Below are positions 25,821 through 64,000 of a DNA stretch of 64,000 nt, piece after piece (positions within the stretch are counted from its first letter, which is position 1; each line of letters begins with the position of its first letter). This DNA comes from a virus. Under the pieces are notes generated by a model, which was not told the origin of the DNA, did no database searches, and saw nothing but the letters and a program-made list of their open reading frames with translations. Made by a program: the position numbers and the translations under genes. Where the stretch lies: positions 64,001 through 128,000 of IMG/VR virus record IMGVR_UViG_3300032770_000005. The stretch is one strand, 5' to 3'.

Positions 25821-25837
25821 CATCCAGAGAGGCGATC

Positions 25838-31890: not shown

Positions 31891-31925
31891 CGGCCGTTGG
31901 CATGTGAGCAGTGCAGGTGCTATCG

Positions 31926-32232: not shown

Positions 32233-32253
32233 CGAAGTACCCGAGAGCACGGC

Positions 32254-33027
32254 TCAGCGCGTCATGACCTCTGCGGTCTTGGCCAACGCGCCGTCGATGT
32301 CGTCGAGCAGCTTCGCGAGGTGCTCTCGTTTCGACCGCAGGGCGCGTAGCTCCGCATCAACCCGACCATCCGCCGCCAACAGCGCCAGGGCACGGCGCAC
32401 GCTGTACGGTTCGTACATGAGCGTCGCGGGCTCGACGTCGAGCGCCAGCGCCAGCGCATCGAACGCATCGGCCTTCCTGAGCCGCTCTTGGACCTCAGCC
32501 ATCTTCACGCGTACTCGCGCTTCGATCTCCGCTTCTCGCCGACGCGCCTCCTCCTCATCGATCTCCGCCTGCGGCCGCGGCTGGTGCGCTTGCTCCAGGG
32601 CGCGGCGCAAGAGGTTGATGACGATCTCCCGCGGCAGCGGCTCGGCCTTTCGTTTCGCCGCCTGCACCGTGACCTTCAGGCCGCGAGGGCCGAGCACCAT
32701 GAGCCCCCAGCCATCGGGCAGCTCGTCGCGGCGCACGACCTCGTCGCTGCCGGCTACGATCCACCAGCGCTCGCAGTAGATGGCCATCGCCTCGGCTTTA
32801 GCGGGGTCCGCCAGCTCGCGCAGCCAGTCGCTCCGGCTCGCCTTGATCTCGAACCCCTGCATCCCGTGCCCACGGCTCTTCCAGATGCCGAGCGCGACCG
32901 CGTCGCAGCTGCGCGTCGCGTAGAAGCTGGTCCGGTCACGCACCTCTTCCAGGAAGGCCCAGCTCGGCCACGAGTACTTCTTCCGTAGCGCGTCGACGAT
33001 CGGCGAGTTGCTGATGTAGTACTTCAT
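32254..33027 (-). CDS. MmcB-like PD-(D/E)xK nuclease-fold protein
   Basis: CDAVAL...GFEIKASRSDWLREL...ELPDGWGL. Confidence 0.8.
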   Translation of the reverse strand: MKYYISNSPIVDALRKKYSWPSWAFLEEVRDRTSFYATRSCDAVALGIWKSRGHGMQGFEIKASRSDWLRELADPAKAEAMAIYCERWWIVAGSDEVVRRDELPDGWGLMVLGPRGLKVTVQAAKRKAEPLPREIVINLLRRALEQAHQPRPQAEIDEEEARRREAEIEARVRVKMAEVQERLRKADAFDALALALDVEPATLMYEPYSVRRALALLAADGRVDAELRALRSKREHLAKLLDDIDGALAKTAEVMTR

Positions 33028-33039
33028 GAGCCAGTCCGG

Positions 33040-33300
33040 CTAGTGCCCAACGGCAAGCAACCAGCCCCATCCGGCCACGTAGAGTCTCGTGCCCGAGTAG
33101 AGCACGACCTCGTACCACTCGTAGTCGAGGTGGCCTTGAGGATGTGGGCCACAATCCGCACGCTCGATGCGACCGAGCTGTCCCGCGTACGGACCGCAAG
33201 CAACACGCACCACATCGCCTGTCCGAAACGATGCCCCGGTATCCGCCGGTCCGAGCAGCTCTCCTGGATCGTACAGATCGAACATCGTCGTAGTGATCAT
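33040..33300 (-). CDS. small KOW/SH3-like protein
   Basis: FRTGDVVRVACGPYAGQLGRI. Confidence 0.6.
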   Translation of the reverse strand: MITTTMFDLYDPGELLGPADTGASFRTGDVVRVACGPYAGQLGRIERADCGPHPQGHLDYEWYEVVLYSGTRLYVAGWGWLLAVGH

Positions 33301-33304
33301 GCCG

Positions 33305-33637
33305 TCACCGCTCGCAGACTTGACGATCTAGAGCCGCACCTACAGCCGCTCGAAGCGCACGACATGCCTCTTCCAAGGCGCTGGTGTTGGCGTCGCGGTC
33401 GTCATCGCCGGTCGTAAACCAAGCCATGGCGGCTCGAACGACCGCGCGCTCCGCATCGGCCACGCTCAGCAACGGAATGTGCTCGACCCAGCTGACGTGA
33501 TGAACACGGTAGAGCCTTCCCAGGGCAAGACCTCGCCACTCGATCTCGACCTCGTCTCCCCGCACGGCCACGACCGTGCCCGTGTAGGACTTCTGCCCCA
33601 CGTCGCGAACGTCGTCACCGACCTTGAACTGTGTCAT
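33305..33637 (-). CDS. hypothetical SH3-like protein
   Basis: FKVGDDV...GTVVAV. Confidence 0.6.
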   Translation of the reverse strand: MTQFKVGDDVRDVGQKSYTGTVVAVRGDEVEIEWRGLALGRLYRVHHVSWVEHIPLLSVADAERAVVRAAMAWFTTGDDDRDANTSALEEACRALRAAVGAALDRQVCER

Positions 33638-33650
33638 CTGCCGGCCCCTT

Positions 33651-33917
33651 CTACTTGGTGCCGCGCTGGATGGCGACGAGCGCAGCCGCCTTGATGCTCT
33701 TGAGCTGCTCGCGCTGCATGAGGCGCACGAGCGCGGCGTAGGTCGCGGCATCGACCTGCACGCCGATGGTCTTCACGGTACCGACGGCGGGCACCTGGCC
33801 CTTCGGCGTCGATGGCTGACGAGCGGGAGCGTGGGTCTCTTCCATGGGCGACTCCTTGAGCGCGGCACGCTCGGCTTGCAGTTGGGCGAGGTGACGTTGG
33901 ATCTGTTCGAGCAGCAT
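33651..33917 (-). CDS. small protein with RHH-like C-terminus
   Basis: KTIGVQVDAATYAALVRLM. Confidence 0.55.
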   Translation of the reverse strand: MLLEQIQRHLAQLQAERAALKESPMEETHAPARQPSTPKGQVPAVGTVKTIGVQVDAATYAALVRLMQREQLKSIKAAALVAIQRGTK

Positions 33918-33919
33918 GG

Positions 33920-34210
33920 TCAGACAGGCGTCCGGCGAGTCACAGCAGCTTCACCAGCCTCTGCCGGAAGCTCCGTGGCGAGTGTCACCACCTGCCAGTC
34001 TTCCGCCAGATAGTCTTCGGGCTTGAAGGCGCTGCGACACGTCACAGAGACCCATGCCCACTTGGTCCATGGGCTCCGCCCCTGCGAGCGAAAGAAGAAC
34101 CCGCGCTCGTCGTAGCCGAACGCGTCGAGGCGCTTGAACGTGTTGTCCATCCCCGAACGGTTCACCAGCTTGCCCGCGAGCATCTCTCGGACTGCTTCGA
34201 CAAAGGTCAT
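33920..34210 (-). CDS. second Tad2/DUF2829-like protein
   Basis: MTFVEAVREMLAGKLVNR...EDYLAEDWQVV. Confidence 0.7.
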   Translation of the reverse strand: MTFVEAVREMLAGKLVNRSGMDNTFKRLDAFGYDERGFFFRSQGRSPWTKWAWVSVTCRSAFKPEDYLAEDWQVVTLATELPAEAGEAAVTRRTPV

Positions 34211-35049
34211 GGACCTGCCCCCATGCGCACGATGCCTGGCGCAGGCGCTCGGAAATCGCCGATGGGCACCTCGCAGTGCAGAGGCAGCGCGAGCTGGCGC
34301 GACAAGTGCGCGCTCTCCCGCCCCGCATCGAGACGCTGCCACAGCTTTTGACCGAAGACCTCGCTCACCGCGGTCTCACCGCGCAGATAGATGTCGTCGA
34401 ACGAATCGAAGTGCTGGAGCAGCTTGACCGCGGTGTGGTGGCCGATGCCTGGCACGCCCGGAATGCCGTCGCTGCTGTCGCCGACCAGCGCAAGGTAGTC
34501 GACGACGTGATGAGCCGATACGCCCAGGCGCTCACGGCAGACCCGGTTGTTGACCAGGCGCTTCATGGCCGGGTCATAGACGCCGCGCACGCCGTGCACG
34601 CCGATCCACTGCCAGAGGTCCTGGTCGATGCTCACGATGAGCTTCGGCACGTCGCGCAGGTCGTGGTGGCACACGTAGGCGCCGATGATGTCGTCCGCCT
34701 CGTACCCGTCGATGCGCACGACGGACACGTCGAGGTCCGCCAGCGTCTCGTAGAACCGCGGCGCCTGACGCGCGAAGACCGGCAGGTGAGCCTTGCGCCC
34801 CGCCTTGTAGCCGTCCCAGACCTCGCACCGCTTCAGCGGCGCGAACGAGTCGCCGACGACCACCATGCGCGTGGTGCGGAGGTCATCCATCGTCCGCGCC
34901 AGCATCACCCGAGCGTGCTCGATGAAGCGCGTGTTGTCAGGATCGACCGTCGGCGCTCGCGCGCCGTAGCAGGCGTACATCGCACGATGCAAGAACGAAG
35001 CGACGTCGACCAGATGCAGTTCGTCGGGCACGTGTAGCTCGTCGGACAC
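34207..35049 (-). CDS. 5'-3' exonuclease/flap endonuclease (Pol I N-terminal-like)
   Basis: YKAGR, GYEADDIIG, SIDQDL, LVGDSSDGIPGVPGIG. Confidence 0.92.
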   Translation of the reverse strand: MSDELHVPDELHLVDVASFLHRAMYACYGARAPTVDPDNTRFIEHARVMLARTMDDLRTTRMVVVGDSFAPLKRCEVWDGYKAGRKAHLPVFARQAPRFYETLADLDVSVVRIDGYEADDIIGAYVCHHDLRDVPKLIVSIDQDLWQWIGVHGVRGVYDPAMKRLVNNRVCRERLGVSAHHVVDYLALVGDSSDGIPGVPGIGHHTAVKLLQHFDSFDDIYLRGETAVSEVFGQKLWQRLDAGRESAHLSRQLALPLHCEVPIGDFRAPAPGIVRMGAGP

Positions 35050-35057
35050 GGAGTCTC

Positions 35058-35927
35058 CTACTGCCCGACCGGAGCCGGCGGAAAGAGCGCCGGCCAGCGT
35101 GCACGTGCGACCTCCTGCCACTTCCGTGCGAGGCGCTGGAACTCCCCATCCGCCGCCGGCGAGCACCGCTCCGCGAACAGCTTGTTGAGCGCGATGGGAT
35201 TGGTCGTCCACAGGAACGACGTGCACGCCTGCATCGGCAGAAGGCCCGCCGCGGCCTCGTAGATGCGCTTGCGCTCGATGCCCACGGGAGATCGACCATG
35301 GGCCTCGAAGAACGCCGTCGTCCTGCCCGTGATGAAGCGGCGGTACGCGTCGTAGAAGGCCTGACAGTGCTTCTCGTACGGGTCGAGCAGGTCGTGCTCG
35401 ACGTAGTAGGGCGGCACCGCGAAGTGGCCCGGATGGAACGTGTAGCGGGTGCTCTCCTGACTCGGCGAGCCCTCCTCGGTGCGGTCCGCGCCCACGTAGT
35501 GGCGGATCAGCTCGTGACTGACCCGCCGGCTCACGCCCGCGATGAAGAAGGTCATCTTCGCGTGGTAGGCCGTGCTCGCATGAGGCAGGGACCCCGCCTC
35601 GGCGGGAAAGAGCATGTGCCGCACGTACTCGACGTTCGACTTGCGGCCAGCCCGCAGACCGTAGCTGTGGTAACAGCTGCGGCCCGCCAGCTCGACGAGC
35701 AGTTCGTTGTCGGTCAGCGCCCGGGCGGCTTCCTTCCCTCCGTGCGGGAACAGCGCCATCGCGCGGTCTTCCGCGTCGGCGGGCAGGTCCGTAGGCACGC
35801 ACTCGGGCCGGTAGTCGCGAACCCAGTCGAGCAGCTGGTTCATGCCCTCGGTGTCGAGGGCCATGGACGCCACGACGAGCACCGTCGGCTCGGTGATGAG
35901 CCGTACGGCGCCCTCCTTCTCCGCCAC
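35058..35927 (-). CDS. thyX: FAD-dependent thymidylate synthase
   Basis: AGRSCY, SRRVSHELIRH, SQESTRY. Confidence 0.92.
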   Translation of the reverse strand: MAEKEGAVRLITEPTVLVVASMALDTEGMNQLLDWVRDYRPECVPTDLPADAEDRAMALFPHGGKEAARALTDNELLVELAGRSCYHSYGLRAGRKSNVEYVRHMLFPAEAGSLPHASTAYHAKMTFFIAGVSRRVSHELIRHYVGADRTEEGSPSQESTRYTFHPGHFAVPPYYVEHDLLDPYEKHCQAFYDAYRRFITGRTTAFFEAHGRSPVGIERKRIYEAAAGLLPMQACTSFLWTTNPIALNKLFAERCSPAADGEFQRLARKWQEVARARWPALFPPAPVGQ

Positions 35928-41823: not shown

Positions 41824-43209
41824 GTCGCGGGCATTCGGCCCCCACGCTGGCCTGACGGCGACGGCGATGACCCACTGCTGCGCCATGTCGCAGGCACGAT
41901 GCCCCCACGCTGGCCCTGCAACGCGCACAACGCGCAGTACAAGCCGATGGCGCTCGGCGTGGCTCGGCGTGTCGCGAGCACCAAGCCCCCGCGCTGGCCT
42001 CGCCTGCATGACGATCTGCACCGAGTGCTTCTGCGTCCATCCGTCGCGGGCACTCGGCCCCCGCGCTGGCCTCGTAACAAGGGCTCTAGCTGACCGGTCA
42101 GCAGGACGACGCGCAGTCGCAGGCACGATGCCCCCGCGCTGGCTCTTCGAGACGCCGTCTCGGCCTTCCGGTCGCAGGCACCAGGCCCCTGCGCAGGCCT
42201 CGCAACAACTACACGCGAACCGAGCGCCTTCGCATATGCGTCGCGAGCACAAGCCCTCGCGCTGGCTCAGTCGTGGAACTGCATGTCGCGGACACCAGAG
42301 CCTCCGCGCAGGCTCGATCGTGGTCGCTCGGCTTGAGCGCGAGCCGGGCCTTCTCGCTCACTTCGCGAGCACCAAGCCCCCGCGCTGGCTTCGCGACTAC
42401 GTGGATGCGGCCGCTTCCCCTTGGTCCAGCGCCAGGTGCAGGCACGAGGCCCCTGCGCAGGCCTCGCGACGTCCTCGTCATGAACACCAATCTCGCGGAC
42501 ACGCAGTCGCAGGCACACGGCCCCCGCGCTGGCCTCGCGACGCATATGATCGGCGCTGGTACGCGTGCGGCGACCTCCAGTCGCAGGCACTCGGCCCCCG
42601 CGCTGGCCTCGCGACGCTCCGGCGCGCCGCGTGAGCATCACGACGTCGCGCTTCATGTCGCGAGCACTCGGCCCCCGCGCTGGCCTCGCGACCGGCAGAC
42701 CCGGGCGATGGTAGTGCTGCACGATGACGTCGCAGGCACACGGCCCCCGCGCTGGCCCCGCGACCAATGAACGGTGCCTTGTGGGCGGCCACGGGTCCCA
42801 GAGTCGCAGGCACACGGCCCCCGCGCTGGCCTCGCGACCCGCACAGCAGCGCGTTGAACGCGCCGCCCGCGAGAAAGTCGCAGGCACACGGCCCCCGCGC
42901 TGGCCTCGCGACGGCACTGCTCCGGCGCATGGGCTTCTGCGAGGAGCGCGGTCGCAGGCACACGGCCCCCGCGCTGGCCTCGCGACCGCGTCGCTGGCCA
43001 CCCGACACGCATGTATGTGCCTCCCGGTCGCAGGCACACGGCCCCCGCGCTGGCCTCGCGACGCACGTCGTGCACGGTCGGCGTTGTCGTAGTTCTCCTG
43101 TCGCAGGCACCAGGCCCCCGCGCCGGCCTCGCGACTAGAGGATCTGCGTGCGAGGAACGTTGTCGAAGAAGGAGTCGCAGGCACACGGCCCCCGCGCTGG
43201 CCTCGCGAC
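41824..43209 (-). CRISPR. main CRISPR array, 20 repeats of 36 bp
   Basis: Ten near-identical repeats at 42506, 42580, 42657, 42729, 42803, 42877, 42951, 43027, 43100, 43174 with 36-41 bp unique spacers; ten degenerate repeats from 41824 to 42435. Strand inferred from the decay gradient. Confidence 0.95.
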
Positions 43210-43548
43210 GGACTGCTCGCATCGGCCGTCATTCCGCATCACTGGGCGCCGCTTCGCGAGCGGTCCCCGCTGAGCAAGCCGCACAGCCTTCCTTGCCTTC
43301 GCTCGCGCCCATGTCTCGTCGTCTTGCCCAGCGGAATCGTTGACCTCTCGCGGCTCGCGAGCGACTCCGCCCTCTGCGATAGCACCGGCGTCGCTCGCAC
43401 ATCGATCGAGAAGCTCCAGAAATGGCGTCGGTAGCGGCATCGGCTTCACTTCGAGGATCTGCGGCCGCGAGTGCGGCGACTCCATCCACGCCTTCGAGAT
43501 ATCCTCGACGGTGTGCACCGTGTAGGGCACGCCCAGCTTGTCGAGCAC
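43135..43548 (-). CDS. hypothetical protein or pseudogene running into the array
   Basis: Protein-like frame crosses the first repeat; possible frameshifted 5' part up to 43627. Confidence 0.35.
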   Translation of the reverse strand: MLDKLGVPYTVHTVEDISKAWMESPHSRPQILEVKPMPLPTPFLELLDRCASDAGAIAEGGVAREPREVNDSAGQDDETWARAKARKAVRLAQRGPLAKRRPVMRNDGRCEQSVARPARGPCACDSFFDNVPRTQIL

Positions 43549-51770: not shown

Positions 51771-52258
51771 GATTGCGCCTTGCGCGCTTCCTGACCGCGC
51801 TTGTGGCCGTCGAGGTAGGGGCTACCGCCCCACTCGTTTCGGCGCTTGCGCTTGCCAGTAAACCCGTCGGTGAAGCCGGCGCGGAAGTCATCGAAGTCCG
51901 CAAGCGACTCGGCTGTTGGCTGCTCAGCGAGAGCATATTCGTGGAGCTGGGACGTTGTGTACGGATCGCCCAAGATGAGGTACAGACGCTTGTCGTCACC
52001 ACGCACAATAGTCCCTGGTCCGCGATACTCGCCAGTGGCCGGAGTCCCGTCCAGGTTGCTGACGGGGATTTTTACATGGTATGTGCCGTACTCGTATGGC
52101 GCATGCGCCGCAGGACCGCTGACCGGACGCGCGTCAACGGTCTGCCACATGAAACCGTCAGCGACGAACACGCGACTCGGCGGATTGCGCCGCATGCGAC
52201 GCCGGGGTGTCCGCTTCTTGCGTGAACTGCGCTTCGGCTTGCGTGATGTTCGCTTCAC
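51767..52258 (-). CDS. Arg-rich leader (RRNPP) plus unknown domain
   Basis: KRTSRKPKRSSRKKRTPRRRMRRNPP. Confidence 0.7.
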   Translation of the reverse strand: MKRTSRKPKRSSRKKRTPRRRMRRNPPSRVFVADGFMWQTVDARPVSGPAAHAPYEYGTYHVKIPVSNLDGTPATGEYRGPGTIVRGDDKRLYLILGDPYTTSQLHEYALAEQPTAESLADFDDFRAGFTDGFTGKRKRRNEWGGSPYLDGHKRGQEARKAQS

Positions 52259-53145
52259 GCCGCCTCCAGACCCGCGCGACGCAGTGCTTCCTCGACGCGG
52301 TACACGACACGACCGTGCGACCCGTAGCGCCTCAGCACCACCGGCCACTCGCCGTCCCAGTCGATGATGGTCGGCTCGCCGCCACGCTTGCCCGTCTCCT
52401 GGCCGTCGGCCATCGCCGCACAGAGGTCGGGCTTGCGTTCGAGGCGCGCTCCATGCGCGAGATAGATGCCGCTCGGCAGCGACGCCAGCGCTCGCCTCGC
52501 GCCCGCCGGTAGACGCTGCGGCAGTTCCTGCTCGCGCGCGACCCTGCCAGCCGCGAGCACCCTGCCAGCCGCCGCGGGCGACGTCTCGCTCTGCACGTAC
52601 TGCCGCTCGTCCTCGTCCTCAATCTCCGGCTCGGGCTCCGGTTCGGGAGCCGGCGCCGGCAAGACCGCCGGCGGCACGTGCACGCCGCCGACCCAGGGAG
52701 CCGCCGCCGACATCGGCGCGAGCGGCGGCGGGAGGGAGATCGACGGCACCGCCGGCGCCGCACGCGTAGCCGCGCGACGCTTGAGCATCGCGTCCGTCTT
52801 TCCGATCCACTCATCGAGCCTGCGCTCGGCGATCTGCTGCTCGCGTTCGAGCTGCCGCAGGTCGTGCGCGCCCCAGGCCGCGACGTCGTCCGTGATCGAG
52901 GCGAGGTGTGCGCTCGCATCGAGCATCGCCTCGGCGCAGAGCGTCTCCGCGATCAACCGCCGCAGCTCGTCGCCCGCGTAGTGCACGCGGAGATCGACGT
53001 CCGCGAGCGCGGCCGACCGCACGATCTCCTCGGGCATCGGCACGTCCGCGAGCGTGACCACGAAGAACACGCCGTTCGGGAAGCCGTGGATGCTGCTGTG
53101 GAACCGGCACCGGTTGCCGACGTACCGCAGCGTCATGGCGCCCAT
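52255..53145 (-). CDS. hypothetical protein
   Basis: Long ORF with Pro/Glu linker; start uncertain. Confidence 0.65.
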   Translation of the reverse strand: MGAMTLRYVGNRCRFHSSIHGFPNGVFFVVTLADVPMPEEIVRSAALADVDLRVHYAGDELRRLIAETLCAEAMLDASAHLASITDDVAAWGAHDLRQLEREQQIAERRLDEWIGKTDAMLKRRAATRAAPAVPSISLPPPLAPMSAAAPWVGGVHVPPAVLPAPAPEPEPEPEIEDEDERQYVQSETSPAAAGRVLAAGRVAREQELPQRLPAGARRALASLPSGIYLAHGARLERKPDLCAAMADGQETGKRGGEPTIIDWDGEWPVVLRRYGSHGRVVYRVEEALRRAGLEAA

Positions 53146-53369
53146 CGCGCGGTCGAAAGATCTGCGGATGTCGGTCCGATACAGCTGCCGCACGAGGACC
53201 TCCTGAACGTGAGCCCGAAGCGAGGCGGGGCGTCCTGCTCTCAGGTTAGTTGGGGCACGCCTGGACCGGGGAAACACCCTTTGTGGGGTCCGCGATCAAG
53301 ACGCACCGCCCCGCTTCCGGCTCACGTTCTACCAAGATTTCGTCCCTTCGCCCACATCGGGCCCGACCC

Positions 53370-54071
53370 TCACCGCTGCGGCCTGCTCACGATCTTGTCC
53401 AAGATCTCCTTCAGGTCCCCTTGGCCCATGTGGTAGCCGGAGATGCGCACGGAGAACATGCGGATCTCGAACTGCGGCGGCCGCAAGATCCAAGCGGTCG
53501 CGTTCACCTGCTGGCCGCTCACGGCGTACGTCGCGAACGCCTCGCCGAGCGGCTCCAAGGGACCCGCGAACGGGAAGATGGTGCCCTGCATCGGCAGCGG
53601 CGCGATCGACGTGCCGCGCGAGCCCTTGGTCGGGTCGTACTGGATGACCTGCCCGCGCATCGAGACGTTCGTGTTGTAGTCGAGCGGGCTGCGGTTCCCG
53701 ATGCTGATCTGAAAGCCGACGTACGTGGCGACGCGCGCCTGCGGCACGAGCGTCATGTCGTCGACGCCGATGCCGCTCGCCTCGTACGCCTCGAACTCGA
53801 AGCTCTTCAGCACGAAGGCCATGTTGTTCGGCACTTCGAGGTTGACCAGCGGCACCGGCACCGGGTACGGCGGCAGGTTGCCGACGAACAGCGGCCGCGG
53901 GTAGTTCGCGAAGTACACGCGGTCGAGGAACGTCGTCGATCTGGACGGCAGGAACTGCCAGAAGCCGTTCAAGATCTGCGTGTTGACCACGCGCGTCGCG
54001 CTCTCGACGTCGGGCAGCATGGACGGCGACTGCGAGAGCGTTGCCGCGCCTCGTCGGATCGAGCCGCTCAT
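53370..54071 (-). CDS. putative jelly-roll virion protein (minor capsid/vertex)
   Basis: Beta-rich; VPNNMAFVL and terminal strand VRISGY; third gene of the trio. Confidence 0.5.
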   Translation of the reverse strand: MSGSIRRGAATLSQSPSMLPDVESATRVVNTQILNGFWQFLPSRSTTFLDRVYFANYPRPLFVGNLPPYPVPVPLVNLEVPNNMAFVLKSFEFEAYEASGIGVDDMTLVPQARVATYVGFQISIGNRSPLDYNTNVSMRGQVIQYDPTKGSRGTSIAPLPMQGTIFPFAGPLEPLGEAFATYAVSGQQVNATAWILRPPQFEIRMFSVRISGYHMGQGDLKEILDKIVSRPQR

Positions 54072-54111
54072 GGTGACCTCCGCTGTGCGGGCGTGCCCAT
54101 CCCGCTGTGTC

Positions 54112-55050
54112 TCAGACCGCCGGCGACTGCGCCTGGAGGATCTTGTATCCGAGCATCGTGAAGTAGAGGACGCCGCCGACCGCGAGCACCTGCCGGCCGA
54201 TGTTGCCCGACACCGTGGGGTCGGGCGGCGGCTGCGCATCGCCCTCGGCGAAGCCGTTCGGGAGCGCGGCGTAGTTGTTCTCGACGAAGCCGAGGTCGCG
54301 CGTCAGCGTCACGTTCAGCGTGATCACCGAGTTCTGCGTGAAGAAGTCGGACGCCGGCAGGTACGCCGGCCGGTCGAACTCCGTGAACAGGTAGCGCGAC
54401 GAGGAGGGGATCTCGTTCTGGCGCGTACGGTTGCTGCCGCTGTCCATGATCTCGAACAGGAAGTCGATGGTGCCCGGCCGGAACGTCTGCACGGCCTGCG
54501 CATCGGCGACCGTGTCGGGGCCGAGGCCCACGCCGATGTACGCGCCCGAGAACGGGTCGGCAGTGCTCGCGATCGGCCGCCACCGCCCGGTGAAGGGCGA
54601 GATGACCTCGGTGCCAATCGGCGGGTCTCCAGGTCGACCGTCCGGCGGATCGATCGTGCCGTACGGGCCGATCGAGTACGTCTTCATCAGGAACGCCGCC
54701 ATGAGCGACGTCGCGACGAAAGGACCGTCGGTGCTGATGGTCTGCGTCGCCGGCAGCCGCGACCCCGCGAGCGACACGCTCGGGTTCGAGGGGCCGGGGA
54801 TCGGGACGTTGAAGTTCAGGAAGTAGGGCACCCGCTTGCCCGGGATGTCCTCGATGTAGCGGATGCGCTCCGCCGCCTTCTTCACCGCGTCCCGCAGCTG
54901 TCCGATGACGAGCTGGTTGTCGCTGTTCTGCTGCGCGAGCTGCTTGTACGCCTTCAGGAGCGACTTCATCTGAGTCGCCATGCGCTGCTCGCGGTCCATC
55001 AGGCCGCGGAGATAGGCAGCAACCTGGGGATCATCGGTGATCGAGGGCAT
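54112..55050 (-). CDS. putative single-jelly-roll capsid protein with N-terminal coiled coil
   Basis: ISTDGPFVAT, IMDSGSNR, PAYLPAS..F..NSVI, LYFTMLGYKI. Confidence 0.55.
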   Translation of the reverse strand: MPSITDDPQVAAYLRGLMDREQRMATQMKSLLKAYKQLAQQNSDNQLVIGQLRDAVKKAAERIRYIEDIPGKRVPYFLNFNVPIPGPSNPSVSLAGSRLPATQTISTDGPFVATSLMAAFLMKTYSIGPYGTIDPPDGRPGDPPIGTEVISPFTGRWRPIASTADPFSGAYIGVGLGPDTVADAQAVQTFRPGTIDFLFEIMDSGSNRTRQNEIPSSSRYLFTEFDRPAYLPASDFFTQNSVITLNVTLTRDLGFVENNYAALPNGFAEGDAQPPPDPTVSGNIGRQVLAVGGVLYFTMLGYKILQAQSPAV

Positions 55051-55174
55051 CTGGGATCCGCCTTCCTCTTCCGCGTCTTTCAGCGGCGTTGGTTGGTGAC
55101 CAGGCGCCTCCTCAGCGCGAGGTCATGTGTCTCGTGAGAGACTGGCCGGGGATGGCCGCCGCAGGGACTGATGT

Positions 55175-55236
55175 CCTGCGACCTCCGCTTACGACGCGAG
55201 CGGCGCAAGCAGAGGTCGCAGGGCGCCGAAGCGCCC
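55175..55236 (-). terminator. tandem hairpins after the putative major capsid gene
   Basis: GGGCGC-TTCG-GCGCCC followed by a long CCTGCGACCTC/GAGGTCGCAGG stem. Confidence 0.55.
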
Positions 55237-55246
55237 CGCGATGCGT

Positions 55247-56020
55247 TCAGAGGACGTCGCGGCTGTGGACGCCATCGATCAGGTACTTGACGTCCTTCTC
55301 GATGTTGTCGATGCCGTTGACCGTCAGGTCGCCGGTGACCGGCTGGGTCACGCCGGGGCTGATCGCCGCCGCGGGACCCACCGTGCCGTCGATCTGGCCG
55401 GCGAGCTGGTCGATCATGTTCGCACCGGTCGACGGGCCGATCGGGCTCGCCGTGACGATGCACTGGAAGCCCTGACGCGGCGGGATGAGGATCGGCCGCG
55501 CGAGCCGCATGAGGGCCGACGAGGTCGGCACGCCGTTGTTGAACCGCGGCAGCCGCGAGTCCGAGCTGAAGCCGTCGAGACCACCGGCGAACGGCGTGTA
55601 CGCCGTGAACGTGGTGAGCTGCGGCTTGTCACCGGCCTGGAACTGCCAGAACAGCTGGTTCTCGGCCTGCATGTACAGCTTGTAGACGCGCTGCACACGA
55701 TCCGGGAACACGCCTGCCACCGAGCCCACCGACGTCTGCACCTGGTTGACCAGGAACTGCGCCTCCGGGTTGAACCGGAAGTACGTCCAGACGCGCACCG
55801 CGAGGGTGATGAACGTCTGGTCCGACGGCAGGAAGCCGCCGGTGGTGAGGTTGGTGATGGCGATGTCGCCACCGCCCTTGAGGAACAGCTGGGTGCGCGG
55901 CTGGGGCACGCTGAACGTGTTCAGCGGGTTGAGCCGCAGGTCGGTGGACCCGTCGACGCGGATGAGCGAGTCGTAGAACGGCTGATGGACGCGCTCGCGC
56001 GTCCCCACGATCTTGGGCAT
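55247..56020 (-). CDS. putative major capsid protein, single jelly-roll type
   Basis: AAGGAGA RBS, strong codon bias, downstream hairpins; QPFYDS..LF..TNL..GGFLPSDQTF..PILIPPRQGF..IDGVHSRDV. Confidence 0.6.
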   Translation of the reverse strand: MPKIVGTRERVHQPFYDSLIRVDGSTDLRLNPLNTFSVPQPRTQLFLKGGGDIAITNLTTGGFLPSDQTFITLAVRVWTYFRFNPEAQFLVNQVQTSVGSVAGVFPDRVQRVYKLYMQAENQLFWQFQAGDKPQLTTFTAYTPFAGGLDGFSSDSRLPRFNNGVPTSSALMRLARPILIPPRQGFQCIVTASPIGPSTGANMIDQLAGQIDGTVGPAAAISPGVTQPVTGDLTVNGIDNIEKDVKYLIDGVHSRDVL

Positions 56021-56205: not shown

Positions 56206-56934
56206 TCAGCCGGAAGCTCCGCTGAACAACATCCGAGAGAACATGCCGCCGGCCCATCCTCGGCCGTCCGGCGTCGCCATCTGCTCGCGGACCCTGCGGA
56301 CCGCTCTCTTCTTCACCACGGGGAACGCGAGGTCGATGGGGCTCACGGTCGAGATCGGCTCGTCCGAGTGCCGCACGTCGTTGATGACCGACTCGTCGTA
56401 CCCGTCGAGGCCGAACATGCCGCGGTACGGCGCGCCGGCGTGGCTGATGTCGATCATGTAGTTCGCGCCCATCCCCGAGACGGGCCCGGGCCCCATCGGC
56501 ACCATGGCCACGGGCGCGACCGGCGCGGGTGCGGGGGTCGGCGTCGGCAGCACGGTGTCCTGGATGAGCTGGAGCGGCAGCCACGGCTTCAGACCGCTCA
56601 CGCCAGCGCCGGCCGCGATGGACATCTGCGTCTCGGGCGAGAGACCGAGCGGCTGCCCCACCGCGTACGCCGCGATGGCGCTCGCGAGCGAGGCGCCGGT
56701 CGCGACGATGCGAGGATCCATGGTCGGCAGGTACGAGCCGCCGACCATGGAGCCCAGCCACTGCGCGAGGATCATGCCGCCCGTCGCCCCGAGAGCCGGC
56801 ACCACGACCTTGTCGACCAGGTCGGCGCTCCCGAGGTTGCGAGCGAGGCGCCGAACCGAGCTGAAGCCGCGCACGCGGCGGTTGTGCACCACCGCGTACG
56901 CGTTTCTGCTGACTCGGCGCCTTCGCTTGCTCAT
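56206..56934 (-). CDS. basic N-terminus, multi-TM virion protein; short paralog of 56944-59403
   Basis: SRN and ARN motifs, TM segments, C-terminal GRGWAGGMFSRMLFSG. Confidence 0.75.
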   Translation of the reverse strand: MSKRRRRVSRNAYAVVHNRRVRGFSSVRRLARNLGSADLVDKVVVPALGATGGMILAQWLGSMVGGSYLPTMDPRIVATGASLASAIAAYAVGQPLGLSPETQMSIAAGAGVSGLKPWLPLQLIQDTVLPTPTPAPAPVAPVAMVPMGPGPVSGMGANYMIDISHAGAPYRGMFGLDGYDESVINDVRHSDEPISTVSPIDLAFPVVKKRAVRRVREQMATPDGRGWAGGMFSRMLFSGASG

Positions 56935-56943: not shown

Positions 56944-59403
56944 TCAGGCCTGCATCCCGGAGAACAGGGTGCGACCGAAGATGCCGCCCGCGAACCCGCG
57001 CCCCTCGTCGGTGGCGTAGTTCCGCTTCTGGACCTTCGTGTCGCGGTGCATCACGCCCGTGACGTCGGTGGCGATGTCCGCCGGCGTCTCGGTCGAGACG
57101 AACGGCGGCTGCGGGAGCGCCGGCGGCATGCCCGGCGGTCCGACCGGCGCCGGCGTCACCGCGCCCGTCACGACGGGCTGGATGGGCGGCGCCGCCGCAG
57201 CGGCCGCAGCCGTCGCGTCGTCACCGAAGCCCGCCGCAGCGTAGTACGTGCCCAGACCCGCCGCGGCCTCGTAGGGCCCACCGGCCGTCGCCTCCATGAC
57301 GTCCATCAGGCCGTCGATCGAGGAGTGGTCGGCGGGATCGATGCCCTCCTGGTAGCCCGCGGCCGCGTAGAACGTGCCCATGCCGCTGAGCGGCTGCTGC
57401 ACGTACTCGCCGACGCCGCTGAGCGGCTGCTGCACGTACTCGCCCATGCTCGGGTCCTGGACGTACGCGCCGACGCCGCTGAGCGGCTGCTGCACGTACT
57501 CGCCCATCCCCGCCGTGGCGTAGTAGGTCCCGAGGTACGGCGCCGCCTGCGTGCCGCGGAGGAGCCGCGCCATGAAGGCCGCACCCTCGCCGGCGACGAT
57601 CGCCGTGAGGTTCTGCCGGAGCATCGGGAACCGCGCCGCCGCGACGATGGTCGCCAGCGCGACCGCCAGGTTCGTGACCGACTTCGTCACGATGGCCTGA
57701 TCGGGCGTCTGACCCGCATCGAGCACGTTGCGCACCTGGTCGATGTTGGCGACCGCGTTCGCCGCACCGTTCGACGCCATGAGGCCACCGATCGCCCAGA
57801 CCGACGGCATGGCGACGTCGTTCATGAGATCGATCTGCGTCCCCATGATGCTGAGGTTCCGGCGCAGGTGGCGACGACGACGGTGGTTCGACCGCATGCT
57901 GTGGCGCTTGCTGTGGCGCTTGCTGTTGCGGCGCATCCGCCGATGATGTCGGTTGCGCACGACGATGTACTTGTTGGCGCTCACCCGCCGGCTCGACCGA
58001 CGCGACCGACGACGCTTGTTCCGACGCATGCCCATGGAGGTCCTCCTGTTCCTTCTGTTCGACGCGAGCGACTTGCGGCGACGCGAGCGCGCGTAGCCCT
58101 CGCGAAGCGCTCGCTCGTGAGCGCGCTTCGCTGCACCTCCGAACGTGAAGCGGCGCGTGTAGCTCCGCTCCGAGACGAACCCCGGCACGTACGTCGCGTA
58201 GCCGCGACGACGCGAGCGAGGTCCGAACTGGACCAGCTGGATGCGCTGGCCCGCTGCACGACCGCCACGCTGGGACGTGCGGCCGAGCAGGTTCGCTGCC
58301 ATGCGGATCCCCGCCGCGCCGTGCGCGTGCCGGGTCGTCGCGTGGATGTACGGCGGGTTGAAGAGCCGGCCCGTGTAGAACGGCGAGGCCGAGTAGCCCT
58401 TCACGCGCTTGTACCCGCGCACCTTCGTCGTGTAGTGGAACTTGCCCTGCTTCTTGCTGATCCGACCACGACGCTGCATGCCACGCGACACCGCTCGCGC
58501 GTGCGACTCCGCGCTCGCCGCGGCCGCCGCCGCCTTCGAGGCCTCGCGCTTCGCAGCGCTGGCTGCCTTCGAGGCAGCTCTCTTCGAGGTGGCCTTCGCC
58601 TTCTTGGCCTTCGAGACGGCCTTCTTGGCGTCCTTCTTCGCCTTCGAGGCCGCCTTGCGCGCCGACTTCGCCGCGGCCTTGGCCGCCTTCGGCGTCGAGG
58701 CGTGCTTCGCCTTCGATGCCGCCTTCTTCGCCCTGGACGCCGCCTTCTTCGACGCCCGAGCCGCGCTCTGCGCGCCCTTCGCCGTGACGCGACCACCCTT
58801 CACGGTGGGAGTGCTGTGGCGGCGGTGGTGCGAGCCGTGGCTCCGGCTGAGCCCGCGCGAGATGCGCCGGCGCTGGCGCGGCGTCAGCGACCCCATCGCC
58901 ATCGCGATCGGCGTCCCCGACACGCGACGGCTACGCCGCTTGCGGCTGTGGCTGCTGCCCGTGTCGACGGCGCGCGAAGCGGCCTTGATCGCTGCGCGAT
59001 CTTCCTCGGACATGTTCCGACGCATCGCGCGCTTGAGCGATTGCACGTTGTAGCCCATCGGTCGTCTCCCTCGTGCGTTTCTGCTGAGCACCTGTTTGCG
59101 GCTGAGCGGATGGGACAGCAGCGTCCCGTACTCGTCGACGGGGTAGAGCCGACCATGGCCCAACTCCGAGGCGTGCTTCTCGGCCCACCGCTTCGCACCG
59201 CGCACCGTTCGGTACGCGGGGCTCAGATGGTGATGGCTGCGCCCACGACCGCTGATCCACTGGAACGGGTTCCGACTCGGCGCACGACCGGGATTGATCA
59301 CGGTCATGTGCGTGACGCCGCCGCCCACGTTCGGCTCCATGCCGGGGCTGCGCTCGTACTTCCGAGCGACGTTCCGTGTCGTCTTGCGGTAGATCAGGGC
59401 CAC
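56944..59403 (-). CDS. large basic core/membrane protein with histone-H1-like region
   Basis: KKAASKAKK tract, many RxN motifs, hydrophobic helices, GEYVQQPLSG repeats, C-terminal GRGFAGGIFGRTLFSG. Confidence 0.8.
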   Translation of the reverse strand: MALIYRKTTRNVARKYERSPGMEPNVGGGVTHMTVINPGRAPSRNPFQWISGRGRSHHHLSPAYRTVRGAKRWAEKHASELGHGRLYPVDEYGTLLSHPLSRKQVLSRNARGRRPMGYNVQSLKRAMRRNMSEEDRAAIKAASRAVDTGSSHSRKRRSRRVSGTPIAMAMGSLTPRQRRRISRGLSRSHGSHHRRHSTPTVKGGRVTAKGAQSAARASKKAASRAKKAASKAKHASTPKAAKAAAKSARKAASKAKKDAKKAVSKAKKAKATSKRAASKAASAAKREASKAAAAAASAESHARAVSRGMQRRGRISKKQGKFHYTTKVRGYKRVKGYSASPFYTGRLFNPPYIHATTRHAHGAAGIRMAANLLGRTSQRGGRAAGQRIQLVQFGPRSRRRGYATYVPGFVSERSYTRRFTFGGAAKRAHERALREGYARSRRRKSLASNRRNRRTSMGMRRNKRRRSRRSSRRVSANKYIVVRNRHHRRMRRNSKRHSKRHSMRSNHRRRRHLRRNLSIMGTQIDLMNDVAMPSVWAIGGLMASNGAANAVANIDQVRNVLDAGQTPDQAIVTKSVTNLAVALATIVAAARFPMLRQNLTAIVAGEGAAFMARLLRGTQAAPYLGTYYATAGMGEYVQQPLSGVGAYVQDPSMGEYVQQPLSGVGEYVQQPLSGMGTFYAAAGYQEGIDPADHSSIDGLMDVMEATAGGPYEAAAGLGTYYAAAGFGDDATAAAAAAAPPIQPVVTGAVTPAPVGPPGMPPALPQPPFVSTETPADIATDVTGVMHRDTKVQKRNYATDEGRGFAGGIFGRTLFSGMQA
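57376..57508 (-). repeat. coding tandem repeat G(E/A)YVQQPLSG(V/M)
   Basis: ACGCCGCTGAGCGGCTGCTGCACGTACTCGCC and variants, three copies plus one partial. Confidence 0.85.
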
Positions 59404-59514: not shown

Positions 59515-59703
59515 TCACGCGGGCGCCGGTTTCTTCTCGGTCGTCGCATCCTGCGCAAGTTCGCGCAGCTCCTTGGGAATCGCGAACCCGCGGCTCGACT
59601 GCCGCGCCTTGCGTACTTCTCGCTGGAACTCGCCGACCGCCTGCTTCATCTGCTGCACGGCTGTCGGTTCGTCGTCTCGCTTGCGGTCTTCCTCGTCGCT
59701 CAT
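59515..59703 (-). CDS. small hypothetical protein
   Basis: GGAGG RBS; coupled ORF. Confidence 0.6.
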   Translation of the reverse strand: MSDEEDRKRDDEPTAVQQMKQAVGEFQREVRKARQSSRGFAIPKELRELAQDATTEKKPAPA

Positions 59704-60059
59704 CTTGGCCTCCCCGGCGGAGATCGATCTCCGCGTGAGATCATCTCGAACCGCGCGTCCATCGCGCTGACCTTCGACTCCAAGCTGATCACCTTCTCGC
59801 GCAGGTCGACGAGGATCTCCATGATCTGCTCGTCCACCTGCCGCGTGGCGCCCGTCTCCCTGAGCGCCTGCGAGAACTCCTTCGTCGACTCCACGACCGT
59901 CGCCGTCACGGCTCGCGCGTCGTCCACGCGCGACTGCTGCACCTGGTTGAGGCGCTCGTATAGGCCGCGCGTGAAGACCGCGAGCGGCACGAGGATGAGC
60001 AGAAAGACGGCGCCGAATGCGCCCCACTGCTGCGTGATCTGCTCGGTGCCCGGCGGCAT
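59700..60059 (-). CDS. single-TM coiled-coil protein, holin-like
   Basis: QWGAFGAVFLLILVPLAVF followed by a coiled coil. Confidence 0.55.
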   Translation of the reverse strand: MPPGTEQITQQWGAFGAVFLLILVPLAVFTRGLYERLNQVQQSRVDDARAVTATVVESTKEFSQALRETGATRQVDEQIMEILVDLREKVISLESKVSAMDARFEMISRGDRSPPGRPR

Positions 60060-60060
60060 G

Positions 60061-60762
60061 TCAGCCGTCGATCCCGTCCTTGAGCACGCGGAGCCGCCCA
60101 CCCTGGATGAAGCCCAAGAAGCCGACGTCACCGTTGCGCAGCTTGTGCGGCGCGTAGATGGCGAGCATGTGTCCGTCCGGCGCGGTGAGGAGCCACGCGT
60201 TGCGTGGGTTCACCGTGTGCCGCAGATCGTCGCTCGGATCGTCATCATCGTCGCGCCGCACGAACCAACCGAGGCACTTGCCGAGGCGCGCCCACGCCTT
60301 CGGGTACTTCAGCTTGGTCGTGCCGAAGCGCGCTCGATCTTCCGGCTCCAGGTCGGCGTTGGAGTAGAAGCGCGTGCCGGCCCCGGGCTCGTACTCCAGC
60401 TCCTCGCTCTTGCCGTGCAGGTGCTTGTAGTCGACGTCCTGCCCGTCCTCGTACCACTTGTCGCAGCGGTACATGACGCTCACGCAATCGCCGACCGGCA
60501 CGACGAGCTTCGGAGGCTCGTGGTCGATCTCGACGATGTCGATGGGCTGCTTCTGATGGAACAGCCGGTAGCGTGCGAGCGCGGCGTCGAGGTCGCGCCC
60601 CTCGGAACCGGCGATGCGCATCGGATCTTCGATGGAGCGCCCGTAGCGCTGCCCCATCGCACCCTCGGAGCCTCGCGGCGCCATCTCGCTCGACGGCGCG
60701 TTCGGGCGTAGGCGCCGGCTTGCTCTGCGGCTGCTGCTGCCACGACTGCTGCGCCTGGTCAT
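60061..60762 (-). CDS. Arg/Ser-rich leader (RLRPN) plus unknown domain
   Basis: YRLFH, VMYRCDKW, YKHLHG, IQGG.L.V...GIDG. Confidence 0.75.
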   Translation of the reverse strand: MTRRSSRGSSSRRASRRLRPNAPSSEMAPRGSEGAMGQRYGRSIEDPMRIAGSEGRDLDAALARYRLFHQKQPIDIVEIDHEPPKLVVPVGDCVSVMYRCDKWYEDGQDVDYKHLHGKSEELEYEPGAGTRFYSNADLEPEDRARFGTTKLKYPKAWARLGKCLGWFVRRDDDDDPSDDLRHTVNPRNAWLLTAPDGHMLAIYAPHKLRNGDVGFLGFIQGGRLRVLKDGIDG

Positions 60763-61082
60763 CGCTGACTCCAGAGCCAGTATAGACCGACGCCGATCGC
60801 CGCGCCGATCAGATACTTCTGCATGTCGGCAGCGGCCGGCAGGTCGAGGCCGAGGCCTGAGCCCGCCACGCGTCGACGAACCTCGCCGCGGCACATCGTG
60901 TCGTAGCCGACGAATCTGGCGCTCGGCGGGAGCGGGTTGCACTGCGTGTCTGGGTCCGCGCCGAGGAAGTTGACGTCCGTCGGCCGTGGCGGCACCGGGT
61001 CGTCGCCGACGCTCACGGGCCGCGAGTCGCGGTACACCGCCCACGCGTTGTGATCCCAGTCCCAGACGGAGTACAAGGCCAT
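60759..61082 (-). CDS. small virion membrane protein
   Basis: YSVWDW...GSGLGL, then a C-terminal TM. Confidence 0.75.
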   Translation of the reverse strand: MALYSVWDWDHNAWAVYRDSRPVSVGDDPVPPRPTDVNFLGADPDTQCNPLPPSARFVGYDTMCRGEVRRRVAGSGLGLDLPAAADMQKYLIGAAIGVGLYWLWSQR

Positions 61083-61095
61083 CGGTACCACCAGC

Positions 61096-62298
61096 CTACA
61101 CGTCGAGCCCATGCCGCCGCAGCAGCGATCGGAGGTTGCGGGTTGCGCGGACGTCCGATGGCGTCGAGCCCGTCACGATGGGCGGCACGCGCACGTCGGG
61201 CGACATGAACCGCACGTGGTTGCCCGGCGTCTTCTCGACGCGCCACCCCTGCGCCTCAGCCGCCGCAATCAGCGTCCGCAGCTCGGGACTCTGCGTGAGG
61301 CGACGACTGCCCGAGGTGTTGGGCCGTGGTCGGGCCCATCGCGGACGCGGCGATGCCCAGTTGTCGTCGAGCGCCACGAGCCTCTTGTCGAGGCTCATGA
61401 TGTGCTCGCGCACGATGTGCTGCCGCGACGCGATCGGACCGTGCAGGATGTACTCCAGCGCCTGCCGTTCCCGACCGTAGGGCATGTACGCCGTCGGGTC
61501 TTGCAGACGAATCGCGAGATAGGCAGGCCGTCCCATGTTGTCCGGGTGCCAGGCCACCACCACACCGCGAGCTTCCGGCGGCACAGCAGCGGTCGCCGCG
61601 GCACCGTGGCTTCCCAGCGGCACGGACACGTTCGCCCAAGCGATCCACTTCACGTGCGTGCCGGGCGCGAACGTCCTCGTGGCCCACGTCTCGTAGCTCG
61701 CGCCCGCCTGGTGCCACGACTGCGGCACGGGAGCCGGTGGAATCGGGTTCGGTGTGTACCGTCCCTTCCACTGACGCCCACGGTACACAGGCTGCTGCGA
61801 TGCCCAGTTGTCTTGGAGCGGGATGAGCCACTGAAGCATCGATGGCGCGATCGGCCGCTGAACCGTATTGGTTCCGTAGCTGTCGAGGATCTTCCAGAGG
61901 TCATCGATCTCAGCTATCTGCCAACGCGCACTGACTCCAGCTGGACGCGCGGCGTAGTACGAGTACCCACGTGCATCCTGCACCGTCACCACGATCTGAA
62001 TCGGATGCCGAAGACGATCGTCGTGGATGACCCCGACCACCTCGCCGCGTGTTCCGTCCGGAACCGTGACCTCGCGGCGCGCCAGGCTCTCATTGGTCTC
62101 GTATGGGTCCAGTGGAGCAGCCCACCACGCCATGCTCTCCTGCTCGAACTTCACCGGCGTGCCTGGCGCGTAGGTCCTCCGCGCCCAGCTCTCTAGGAGC
62201 TGGCTGGTCGGATCTTGCGGCGGCGGCGGGATCACGTTCGCATGAACGCGACGCGAAGTGCGCGCTCGGCCCCGCTTCGGTCGGCTCGTGCGAGCCAT
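61096..62298 (-). CDS. modular protein: basic leader, two repeated domains, C-terminal HicA-like domain
   Basis: AEAQGWRVEKTPGNHVRFMSP..TGSTPSDVRATRNLRSLLRR. Confidence 0.75.
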   Translation of the reverse strand: MARTSRPKRGRARTSRRVHANVIPPPPQDPTSQLLESWARRTYAPGTPVKFEQESMAWWAAPLDPYETNESLARREVTVPDGTRGEVVGVIHDDRLRHPIQIVVTVQDARGYSYYAARPAGVSARWQIAEIDDLWKILDSYGTNTVQRPIAPSMLQWLIPLQDNWASQQPVYRGRQWKGRYTPNPIPPAPVPQSWHQAGASYETWATRTFAPGTHVKWIAWANVSVPLGSHGAAATAAVPPEARGVVVAWHPDNMGRPAYLAIRLQDPTAYMPYGRERQALEYILHGPIASRQHIVREHIMSLDKRLVALDDNWASPRPRWARPRPNTSGSRRLTQSPELRTLIAAAEAQGWRVEKTPGNHVRFMSPDVRVPPIVTGSTPSDVRATRNLRSLLRRHGLDV

Positions 62299-62300
62299 GG

Positions 62301-63191
62301 CTATCGCGACGCCGCTCGCCGACGCTCCACCATCGCGGGCACCCGTTCGAGCTTCCGGGCGTACTCCTCGACGCGGTACACGCTGTGCGACGACTGGTCG
62401 ACCATCCGCACGACCACGGGGTAGCCGCCTCGATTGTCGATGAGCCAGTGCATCTCGCCACCGTAGCGTGCGGCGATGCGCGTGTTCGCGAGAGCGCCGG
62501 CGAGGTCGGTCGAGATCCGCTGGAGCACGTTCTCACGCTTCTTGCCCGAGCCGTAGCGGTAGAGCCCCGGCGGCATCGAGCGCAAGCGCGACCACACGCT
62601 CGCGGGCATGAAGTGCTTCTGCTCGGACGGCCGCAGATCTCGCACGATCGCGATGCCCTCCTCGATCGCCAGCTCCGTCTTCGCGCCGATGTGCACGTTC
62701 GGCTCGACGCTCTCCTGCCACGCATCGAGCCCAGCGCGCCTGAGGGCCGCGGCGAGAGAGCGGATCTCCGTACGCTGCGCGGGCGTGGCGAAGTCCTGGA
62801 GCGCCTGCACGTGCGCGAACGCATCCTGGGCGCGCCACGTGTCGCCGCCGTTGAGCGCGTTCCAGGCCGTGGTCAGCTCGTGCTCGACCTCGTGCTCCAG
62901 CACGTCGAGCTGCTCGCCGCCGCGGTTCGACATGAGGCGCTTCCGGTCGCGCGGCTCCAGCGACAGGTACGCGTGCCCGCGGCGATCGACGACGTAAGCG
63001 CTTCGGAGGCTCGGATCACCGAGCCAGCTCGCCATCGCCGTGTCGCGCATGCGCGCAAGGGGACCCGTGCCGAGGTCGACCTTGCCGCCGCGCTCGTCCA
63101 CGCCCACCGCGTGGTACAGCGGCGGCGGCGAGTTCGCGCGAATGCGCTTGCTCGTGCGTCTTCGCTGACGCGATGTCCGCTTGGCGGCCAT
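62301..63191 (-). CDS. basic leader (RIRANSPP) modular protein
   Basis: Segments bounded by RAN, MSN and EPN. Confidence 0.7.
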   Translation of the reverse strand: MAAKRTSRQRRRTSKRIRANSPPPLYHAVGVDERGGKVDLGTGPLARMRDTAMASWLGDPSLRSAYVVDRRGHAYLSLEPRDRKRLMSNRGGEQLDVLEHEVEHELTTAWNALNGGDTWRAQDAFAHVQALQDFATPAQRTEIRSLAAALRRAGLDAWQESVEPNVHIGAKTELAIEEGIAIVRDLRPSEQKHFMPASVWSRLRSMPPGLYRYGSGKKRENVLQRISTDLAGALANTRIAARYGGEMHWLIDNRGGYPVVVRMVDQSSHSVYRVEEYARKLERVPAMVERRRAASR

Positions 63192-63193
63192 CG

Positions 63194-64000
63194 TCAGGCC
63201 GCCCTCGACGTCCTGCGATGCTTCCGACGAGAGACGGCTCGGCGCCGGCGCGCCGCCTCCGCCTTCGGCCACGAGACGAGGCCGCGGTACTGGCGCCACA
63301 CGCCGGGATAGCGACGCTGGATGGCGTTGGAGATCTTCAGATAGTCCCCCGCCGACCGGACGCGGCCCATGTGCAGCGCCTGCATCGCCTCATAGGCGCG
63401 CTCGGGTGTGTCGAGCGGCCATGCACGCCGCTCCGGGAAGACGAAGTCACGCGCGGGGATCCTCTCCCGCTCGCGAGCGCTGAGCCGGTTCCGGCTGACG
63501 CGCCGATGGTGACGGCGGCGGTTGGCGGCGTACCGACTCGCGTACCGCGTGCCATGCGGGTAGCGGCGGCGACGAGTCGCGATGCCCTTCCGCTTCGCTG
63601 CCGACGTCCGCGGCCAGCTGAGCATGTGCTTGTACTGCTTCCACACGCCAGGGTACCGACGCTGGATGGCGTTGGAGATCTTGAGGTAGTCGCTCGCGCT
63701 CCGCACGCGTCCGAGGTGCATCGCACGCATCGCATCGTACGCGCGCTTGGGCGTGTCGAGCGGCCAAGCACGACGCTCGGGGAAGACGAACTTGCTCGCG
63801 GGGATCTTCGCGCGCTCCCGAGCGCTGAGCCGGTTCCGGCTGATGCGCCGACCGCGACGGTTCTGGGCGATGCCCTCGCCCCGTCGGTACCGCGCGATCG
63901 CCGCCGCCTGCGATCGCGCGCGTACGACGCGAAGACCACTCGCGCTCGGATGGATGAAATCCTTCGTGGCTGATGCCGAAATCACGCTGCGGTGCGCGTA
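63194..64000 (-). CDS. basic protein with two DUF6582-like repeats; 5' end probably outside the window
   Basis: SRNRLSARER..IPA..FVFPERRAWPLDTP.RAY twice. Confidence 0.7.
   Translation of the reverse strand, partial: YAHRSVISASATKDFIHPSASGLRVVRARSQAAAIARYRRGEGIAQNRRGRRISRNRLSARERAKIPASKFVFPERRAWPLDTPKRAYDAMRAMHLGRVRSASDYLKISNAIQRRYPGVWKQYKHMLSWPRTSAAKRKGIATRRRRYPHGTRYASRYAANRRRHHRRVSRNRLSARERERIPARDFVFPERRAWPLDTPERAYEAMQALHMGRVRSAGDYLKISNAIQRRYPGVWRQYRGLVSWPKAEAARRRRAVSRRKHRRTSRAA

Follow-up and report, generated by a model that had tools for sequence, protein, structure and literature searches.

Candidate jelly-roll shell proteins in a lineage of 150–300-kb, putatively tailless bacterial viruses

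To our knowledge, every large prokaryotic virus described so far is tailed, with an HK97 capsid and a terminase motor. Sphaerolipovirus and SPV1 genomes are in the range of tens of kb. A contig of 152,857 bp with a GC content of 68% (IMGVR_UViG_3300032770_000005) raises the question of whether a genome of this size could be enclosed in a shell of another kind. A sequence-only reading of bases 64,001–128,000 of this contig (the window, 64,000 nucleotides; positions below refer to the window unless otherwise stated) proposed that three adjacent, beta-rich proteins are single-jelly-roll capsid proteins of a very large tailless relative of P23-77 and SH1. The three open reading frames (ORFs) were found in the proposed place, on the minus strand:

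55247-56020, minus strand: P3, 257 aa, in an ORF that extends to 56122; candidate major capsid protein, modelled as a single jelly roll like that of a small major capsid protein (MCP)
55221-55240, minus strand: GC-rich hairpin with a TTCG loop, read from the sequence, just past the P3 stop codon and within the 196-bp P3–P2 spacer
54112-55050, minus strand: P2, 312 aa; candidate second major capsid protein, modelled as an N-terminal 60-residue helix and a jelly-roll domain (residues 72-305)
53370-54071, minus strand: P1, 233 aa, with a longer ORF to 54239 that overlaps P2; beta-rich and faster evolving; candidate vertex or minor capsid protein

P1, P2, and P3 are genuine genes. Their third-position GC (0.91–0.94) is among the highest values of the contig, and the starts listed here, each chosen behind a Shine-Dalgarno site, are likely the true starts. 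The end motifs on which the sequence-only reading had drawn (IDGVH, MLGYK, and ISGYH) are indeed present in P1–P3 and are conserved inside each family; in P3, both extreme termini are conserved across the whole superfamily. The hairpin was not called by a consensus terminator scan because it lacks a T run, and the promoter and terminator scan yielded nothing exceeding shuffles.

Both contig ends (contig 1-321 and 152509-152857) are contained in one tandem array with a period of ~24 bp, which points to a genome that is circular or terminally redundant and that was broken in the repeat during assembly; the IMG/VR record is labelled ‘linear’. IMG/VR holds ten related contigs of 9–298 kb, and two relatives, of 159,872 and 161,502 bp (GC 62.5% and 59.3%), close on exact overlaps of 127 and 123 bp. 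Given these overlaps and the shared end array of the present contig, we therefore consider these to be complete or near-complete, circularly assembling genomes. The contig has 46 of 145 genes in common with the two complete relatives (G001 and G004), and each of these three genomes carries one copy each of P1, P2, and P3.

None of the three proteins has a match in Pfam, PHROGs, or NCBIfam, and tblastn of P2 and P3 against 50,697 deposited phage and virus records returned no match. Profiles of P1, P2, and P3, together with a diverse 37-member P3 profile, retrieved only coiled-coil or chance matches from among PDB sequences. Neither BLASTP nor hhalign detected mutual similarity among the three (probabilities <1%), also when the 37-member profile was included; at the level of sequence, their common ancestry is neither shown nor excluded. 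Homologues are found in metagenomes, all of them labelled ‘hypothetical’: 212 for P2, 251 for P3 (on contigs of up to 259 kb), and, by a word-based search, 14 for P1. The lineage is broad, with hundreds of homologues at 90% clustering, and an exhaustive profile search resolved the P3 family into 96 clusters at 50% identity. We found no description of such putative viruses in the literature searched.

Models of P2 and P3 were obtained with AlphaFold2 using family alignments, and each consists of one beta-sandwich. The P2 model (pLDDT 73) has the 60-residue N-terminal helix followed by a beta domain of about eight strands, and the P3 model (pLDDT 61) is mostly beta, with two poorly modelled loops. 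Both models are jelly-roll-like. The best full-domain structural match is a capsid protein, and further VIA-align rows for P2 are the STIV turret jelly roll (7.3), D13/Orfv075 (7.3), P23-77 VP17 (7.0), and HCIV-1 (6.1), as compared with 7.5 and 7.0 for the cellular jelly rolls PHM and nucleoplasmin. Capsid chains of HHIV-2, P23-77 VP16, and SH1 are the top Foldseek rows for P3 (E 0.2–0.55); no Foldseek row against PDB or BFVD reached E <= 0.001, but the matches listed are of a consistent kind. By a method independent of AlphaFold (ESM Atlas features), P3 and P1 lie nearest, among Pfam-bearing clusters, to the capsid families of PM2 and PRD1, at scores of 0.75–0.77 that are a lead only and often arise by chance. 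The beta-rich character ascribed to all three proteins is borne out by the AlphaFold models of P2 and P3 and less firmly for P1, whose Atlas model (pLDDT 0.50) matches generic beta-sandwiches only (TM 0.35–0.45).

Compared with the two complete relatives, a 203-aa protein scores 1.25 bits per residue (62–63% identity), P2 1.16–1.24 (60%), and P3 1.14–1.19 (61–67%), placing P2 and P3 in the lineage's top three proteins by conservation; the corresponding values are ~0.9 (47–51%) for the archaeo-eukaryotic primase (AEP) and 0.42–0.47 (34–36%) for P1. The junction between the helix and the beta domain of P2 is nearly invariant. The order P3–P2–P1 is kept in very distant relatives with compact (~205 aa) proteins. 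In one of these (L043), a Gly-rich protein is followed by a P3-like protein (208 aa, E 7e-48), a P2-like protein (208 aa, E 5e-20) in which the coiled coil and the IEDIPGK junction are present, and a 205-aa gene at the P1 position; in another (L044), the three families occur in order, with P1 at E 5e-12, and a third (L047) has the same layout. A P1-family gene follows the P2-like gene in both L007 and L044. Three independent long P3 variants (482, 361, and 373 aa) all break the P3 profile at ~152–158, so that a single loop is the insertion hotspot, as would be expected of a lattice protein in which one loop faces outward.

The 259-kb relative L007 has a second P3 paralogue (L007:7304-8800) directly upstream of its normal P3, which is absent from the present contig. 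In this paralogue, the loop at P3 ~155–165, which is poorly modelled by AlphaFold, is interrupted by an Ice_binding-type beta-helix of ~215 residues. The gap between P3 and P2 also varies: it measures 196 bp here (window 55050-55247) and 221 bp in L007, 2.8–3.3 kb in the two complete relatives (G001 64526-67813, G004 29267-32096), and a 176-kb Logan contig has four genes inside it, one with a faint LAGLIDADG match. The spacer seems to be a place where mobile genes insert.

We read P2 and P3 as capsid proteins because of their top conservation, the persisting gene order, and the P3 loop that accepts large domains. With modest confidence, and guided by the models, we propose that P3 and P2 are the two major shell proteins, each with a single jelly roll, of uncultured tailless bacterial viruses of 150–300 kb and that P1 is a third, faster-evolving component of the shell.

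The alternative that fares best is a virus whose particle is of another kind (for example enveloped, pleomorphic, or novel in some other way), with P2, a coiled-coil stalk carrying a beta-sandwich head, and P3 serving as spike, matrix, or nucleocapsid proteins. The 60-residue helix of P2 and the beta-sandwich behind it form a layout that is common in trimeric fibres and spikes; other weak matches of P3 are to haemagglutinin heads, PRD1 P5, BclA, and a Bdellovibrio fibre tip; and the surrounding gene block is rich in proteins with hydrophobic segments, with no packaging motor found (see below). Receptor-binding proteins, however, normally belong to the most variable genes of a virus. Here, P2 and P3 rank in the top three by conservation, the P2 junction hardly varies, and a capsid protein gives the best full-domain match. 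We consider this alternative unlikely.

P1–P3 lie in a minus-strand block at contig ~112-147 kb, together with the following genes:

59700-64000, minus strand: upstream rest of the block, which reaches contig ~146.5 kb; unannotated proteins, several of which are basic, have hydrophobic segments, or both; synteny with G001 and G004
56944-59403, minus strand: very basic protein of 819 aa (154 Lys/Arg versus 41 Asp/Glu) that contains one hydrophobic segment and repeats with a 33-bp period; candidate DNA-condensing or membrane core protein
56206-56934, minus strand: immediately upstream of P3, a Gly-rich protein of 242 aa that includes a hydrophobic stretch; candidate component of a membrane or core
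52255-53277, minus strand: 340-aa conserved gene directly downstream of P1; member of the syntenic block

The neighbours that the sequence-only reading described as membrane and basic core proteins correspond to the 242-aa and 819-aa proteins, candidates for such roles. About 28 kb of the block is syntenic in both complete relatives. Many of its proteins have one hydrophobic segment and/or an Arg-rich tail (in about half, a hydrophobic segment is present, often followed by such a tail), and most have no match in Pfam, PHROGs, or NCBIfam. The 340-aa protein, likewise without a match in these three databases, is 35–37% identical over 91–97% of its length in G001 and G004. The 242-aa protein is syntenic in the same two genomes (30–33% identity), and L043 has a Gly-rich ~207-aa gene at its position; the 819-aa protein is 37% identical across ~56% of its length, with proteins of 774–778 aa at its position in relatives. 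Its tandem repeat (window 57382-57504) encodes ~4 copies of MGEYVQQPLSGVG. The 819-aa and 242-aa proteins, otherwise dissimilar, have nearly alike C-terminal tails (...DEGRGFAGGIFGRTLFSGMQA, encoded at 56944-57020, and ...PDGRGWAGGMFSRMLFSGASG, encoded at 56206-56280), which could be a common targeting, anchoring, or cleavage signal.

The 203-aa protein, the best conserved of the lineage, is encoded outside the window on the minus strand (L005:13724-14335, i.e. contig 141724-142335). Its residues Cys125, Cys136, His161/163, and Asp170/180 are invariant. This pattern is reminiscent of a transglutaminase-like cysteine protease, which might act in maturation, but Pfam and NCBIfam gave nothing in favour of the idea; the protein's PDB profile match is an artefact, in which six 8-bit matches to a designed Kelch repeat are summed.

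A further alternative, which we judge to be less likely still, is that the contig is a large plasmid-like replicon in which P1–P3 build a cellular structure (such as a pilus or fibre, a surface layer, or a protein compartment). P3 is without homologues in 72,556 plasmids, and the large proteins scanned include no relaxase, VirB4, coupling-protein, or FtsK-like family. The Arg-rich and hydrophobic-segment proteins, PG_binding and SLT genes in the block of a relative, and a muramidase on the contig fit a virion and lysis. Moreover, binning of metagenome-assembled genomes scatters the homologues over five phyla, as it does for viruses (the bins being Planctomycetota, Phycisphaeraceae, Lentisphaeraceae, ‘Deltaproteobacteria’, and Acidobacteriota).

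Hallmark genes were sought by six-frame HMM searches of the contig and four relatives (together five genomes of 153–298 kb), all at least 90% complete by CheckV, with control genomes that matched every family. HK97 Phage_capsid, Phage_portal, TerL_ATPase, and Terminase_6N (PF05065, PF04860, PF03354, PF03237) are absent from all five genomes, as is any match to the NCLDV capsid (Capsid_NCLDV); the lack of an HK97 capsid, terminase, and portal that had been remarked for the 64-kb window thus extends to the whole 153-kb contig and to its four relatives. No tailed-phage hallmark emerged when the large proteins were compared with Pfam, PHROG, and NCBIfam, there was no match to a tail tube, sheath, or tape-measure protein, and PHROG searches of 20 large unknown proteins gave nothing meaningful (best tail-family matches E 0.056 and 0.093). 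A highly divergent tailed phage, with an undetectable HK97 capsid, portal, and terminase and with P1–P3 as accessory jelly rolls (decoration, baseplate, or fibre), is hence the least probable alternative, the more so as terminase P-loops are very hard to lose and the Walker A proteins conserved in three genomes are only a UvrD helicase, a ResIII helicase, and a MoxR AAA+ protein.

The same searches addressed packaging ATPases of the FtsK/HerA type (PF01580, PF01935, PF04665; DUF87/HerA, Pox_A32). Nothing exceeded the threshold in any of the five genomes; a single relative has one sub-threshold match to FtsK.

Among known virus groups, the Helvetiavirae (P23-77, with VP16/VP17; SH1, HHIV-2, and HCIV-1, with VP7/VP4) show no sequence or profile similarity to P1–P3, and their genomes are 5–10 times smaller than the one described here. 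Helvetiaviruses encode an FtsK/HerA ATPase (PMC8812541), which was not found in the contig or its four relatives, and on this point the suggested kinship with P23-77 and SH1 fails. The double-jelly-roll membrane phages (PRD1 P3, PM2 P2; Bamfordvirae) differ in that P2 and P3 each model as one sandwich, not two; here, there is no Pfam or Capsid_NCLDV match, and the Atlas scores to the PM2 and PRD1 clusters are those given above. Prokaryotic double-jelly-roll viruses have genomes of <20 kb, and most encode the ATPase (PMC8812541).

Because the test for a packaging ATPase failed, SPV1 (Portogloboviridae; MCP VP4, PDB 6OJ0) would be a closer analogue than P23-77 or SH1 and may be the closest one. 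SPV1 is without a packaging ATPase (PMC8812541), as is, to the extent of detection, the present lineage, and it carries CRISPR arrays (PMC6858448). Unlike SPV1, the lineage has two or three distinct candidates for jelly-roll proteins as well as bacterial-type signals, and its genomes are 7–15 times larger; sequence homology to SPV1 or SPV2 virion proteins was found neither with P1–P3 profiles against PDB sequences (including 6OJ0) nor by tblastn of P2 and P3. Of the large tailless jelly-roll virus first envisaged, the proposed tailless nature and the jelly-roll-like models of P2 and P3 are retained, but the resemblance is to motor-less SPV1 more than to P23-77.

We infer capsid formation, a membrane, the stoichiometry, the role of P1, and the mode of packaging. 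In the proposed particle, basic proteins would condense the DNA, and a protein-studded membrane would enclose it; the ~28-kb late block would also supply the small proteins with hydrophobic segments and Arg-rich tails as well as the very basic large proteins. P3 and P2 would then form capsomers that cover the outside, the P3 loop at ~152–158 (the beta-helix site in some relatives) would face outward, and P1 would be, for instance, a vertex or peripheral shell protein. Because neither a terminase nor an FtsK/HerA ATPase was found, packaging may proceed without a motor, by co-assembly or condensation, the mode proposed for SPV1. Taken as a whole, and as a tentative suggestion that may well prove wrong, this could be a deep, undescribed lineage of bacterial viruses with a membrane-lined icosahedral shell of two different single-jelly-roll proteins and no motor, 150–300 kb of DNA being enclosed by condensation with Arg-rich proteins; no tailless prokaryotic virus is known to have a genome nearly as large. 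Such a lineage would stand between a portoglobovirus-like state (one MCP, no ATPase) and a helvetiavirus-like state (two MCPs and an ATPase).

This analysis adds models of the P2 and P3 folds, a ranking of the proteins by conservation, the extent of the P3 superfamily with its compact cassettes, the loop hotspot, and a P-loop census across the lineage. If the proposal is true, these viruses are several times larger than any described tailless, membrane-lined bacterial virus; a widespread tailless jelly-roll lineage of 150–300 kb would break the rule that prokaryotic jelly-roll viruses are small, very large genomes could be enclosed without a known motor, and a missing state would be added to the proposed capsid route from portoglobovirus-like to helvetiavirus-like viruses. 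Virus-finding pipelines label such contigs as tailed phages, so that existing catalogues may contain an entire architecture that has gone unnoticed.

Elsewhere, the contig encodes an AEP primase, an RNase T exonuclease, ThyX, a ParB-like protein, a tyrosine recombinase, a muramidase, and glycosyltransferases. One pair that is kept in both complete relatives consists of a MoxR-type AAA+ ATPase and a DUF2201 metallopeptidase/VWA protein (L001:2378-3817, L001:5376-6611); judging from sequence, MoxR is the lineage's only conserved AAA+ protein, and a role in assembly is conceivable. A plus-strand block (L002:5131-15582, contig 25131-35582) encodes proteins of 1079, 238, 252, 561 (NosD beta-helix), 551, 206, and 574 aa. 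None has a PHROG match better than E 0.01, the 206-aa protein having weak ones (E 0.012 and 0.056); in relatives, conservation is confined to the N-terminal parts and does not extend to the C-terminal ones, which is the pattern of host-recognition spikes or fibres.

The contig also encodes CRISPR arrays and two Cas12f/TnpB-like proteins. The latter are Cas12f1-like TNB-domain proteins of 586 and 651 aa, located outside the window (L001:8790-10550 and L003:17259-19214); inside it are a CRISPR-like array with a period of 74 (42504-43219) and a mini-array (8675-8780). The myxophage MV-1, which has Cas12m, was reported as a tailed phage (10.64898/2026.09.14.751636). Finally, genes at window positions 1143-3667, 6345-7112, 11184-13478, 14001-14921, and 35058-35927 encode two GT4-type and one GT17-type glycosyltransferase, a UvrD-type helicase, a ParB-HTH protein, and a ThyX thymidylate synthase.
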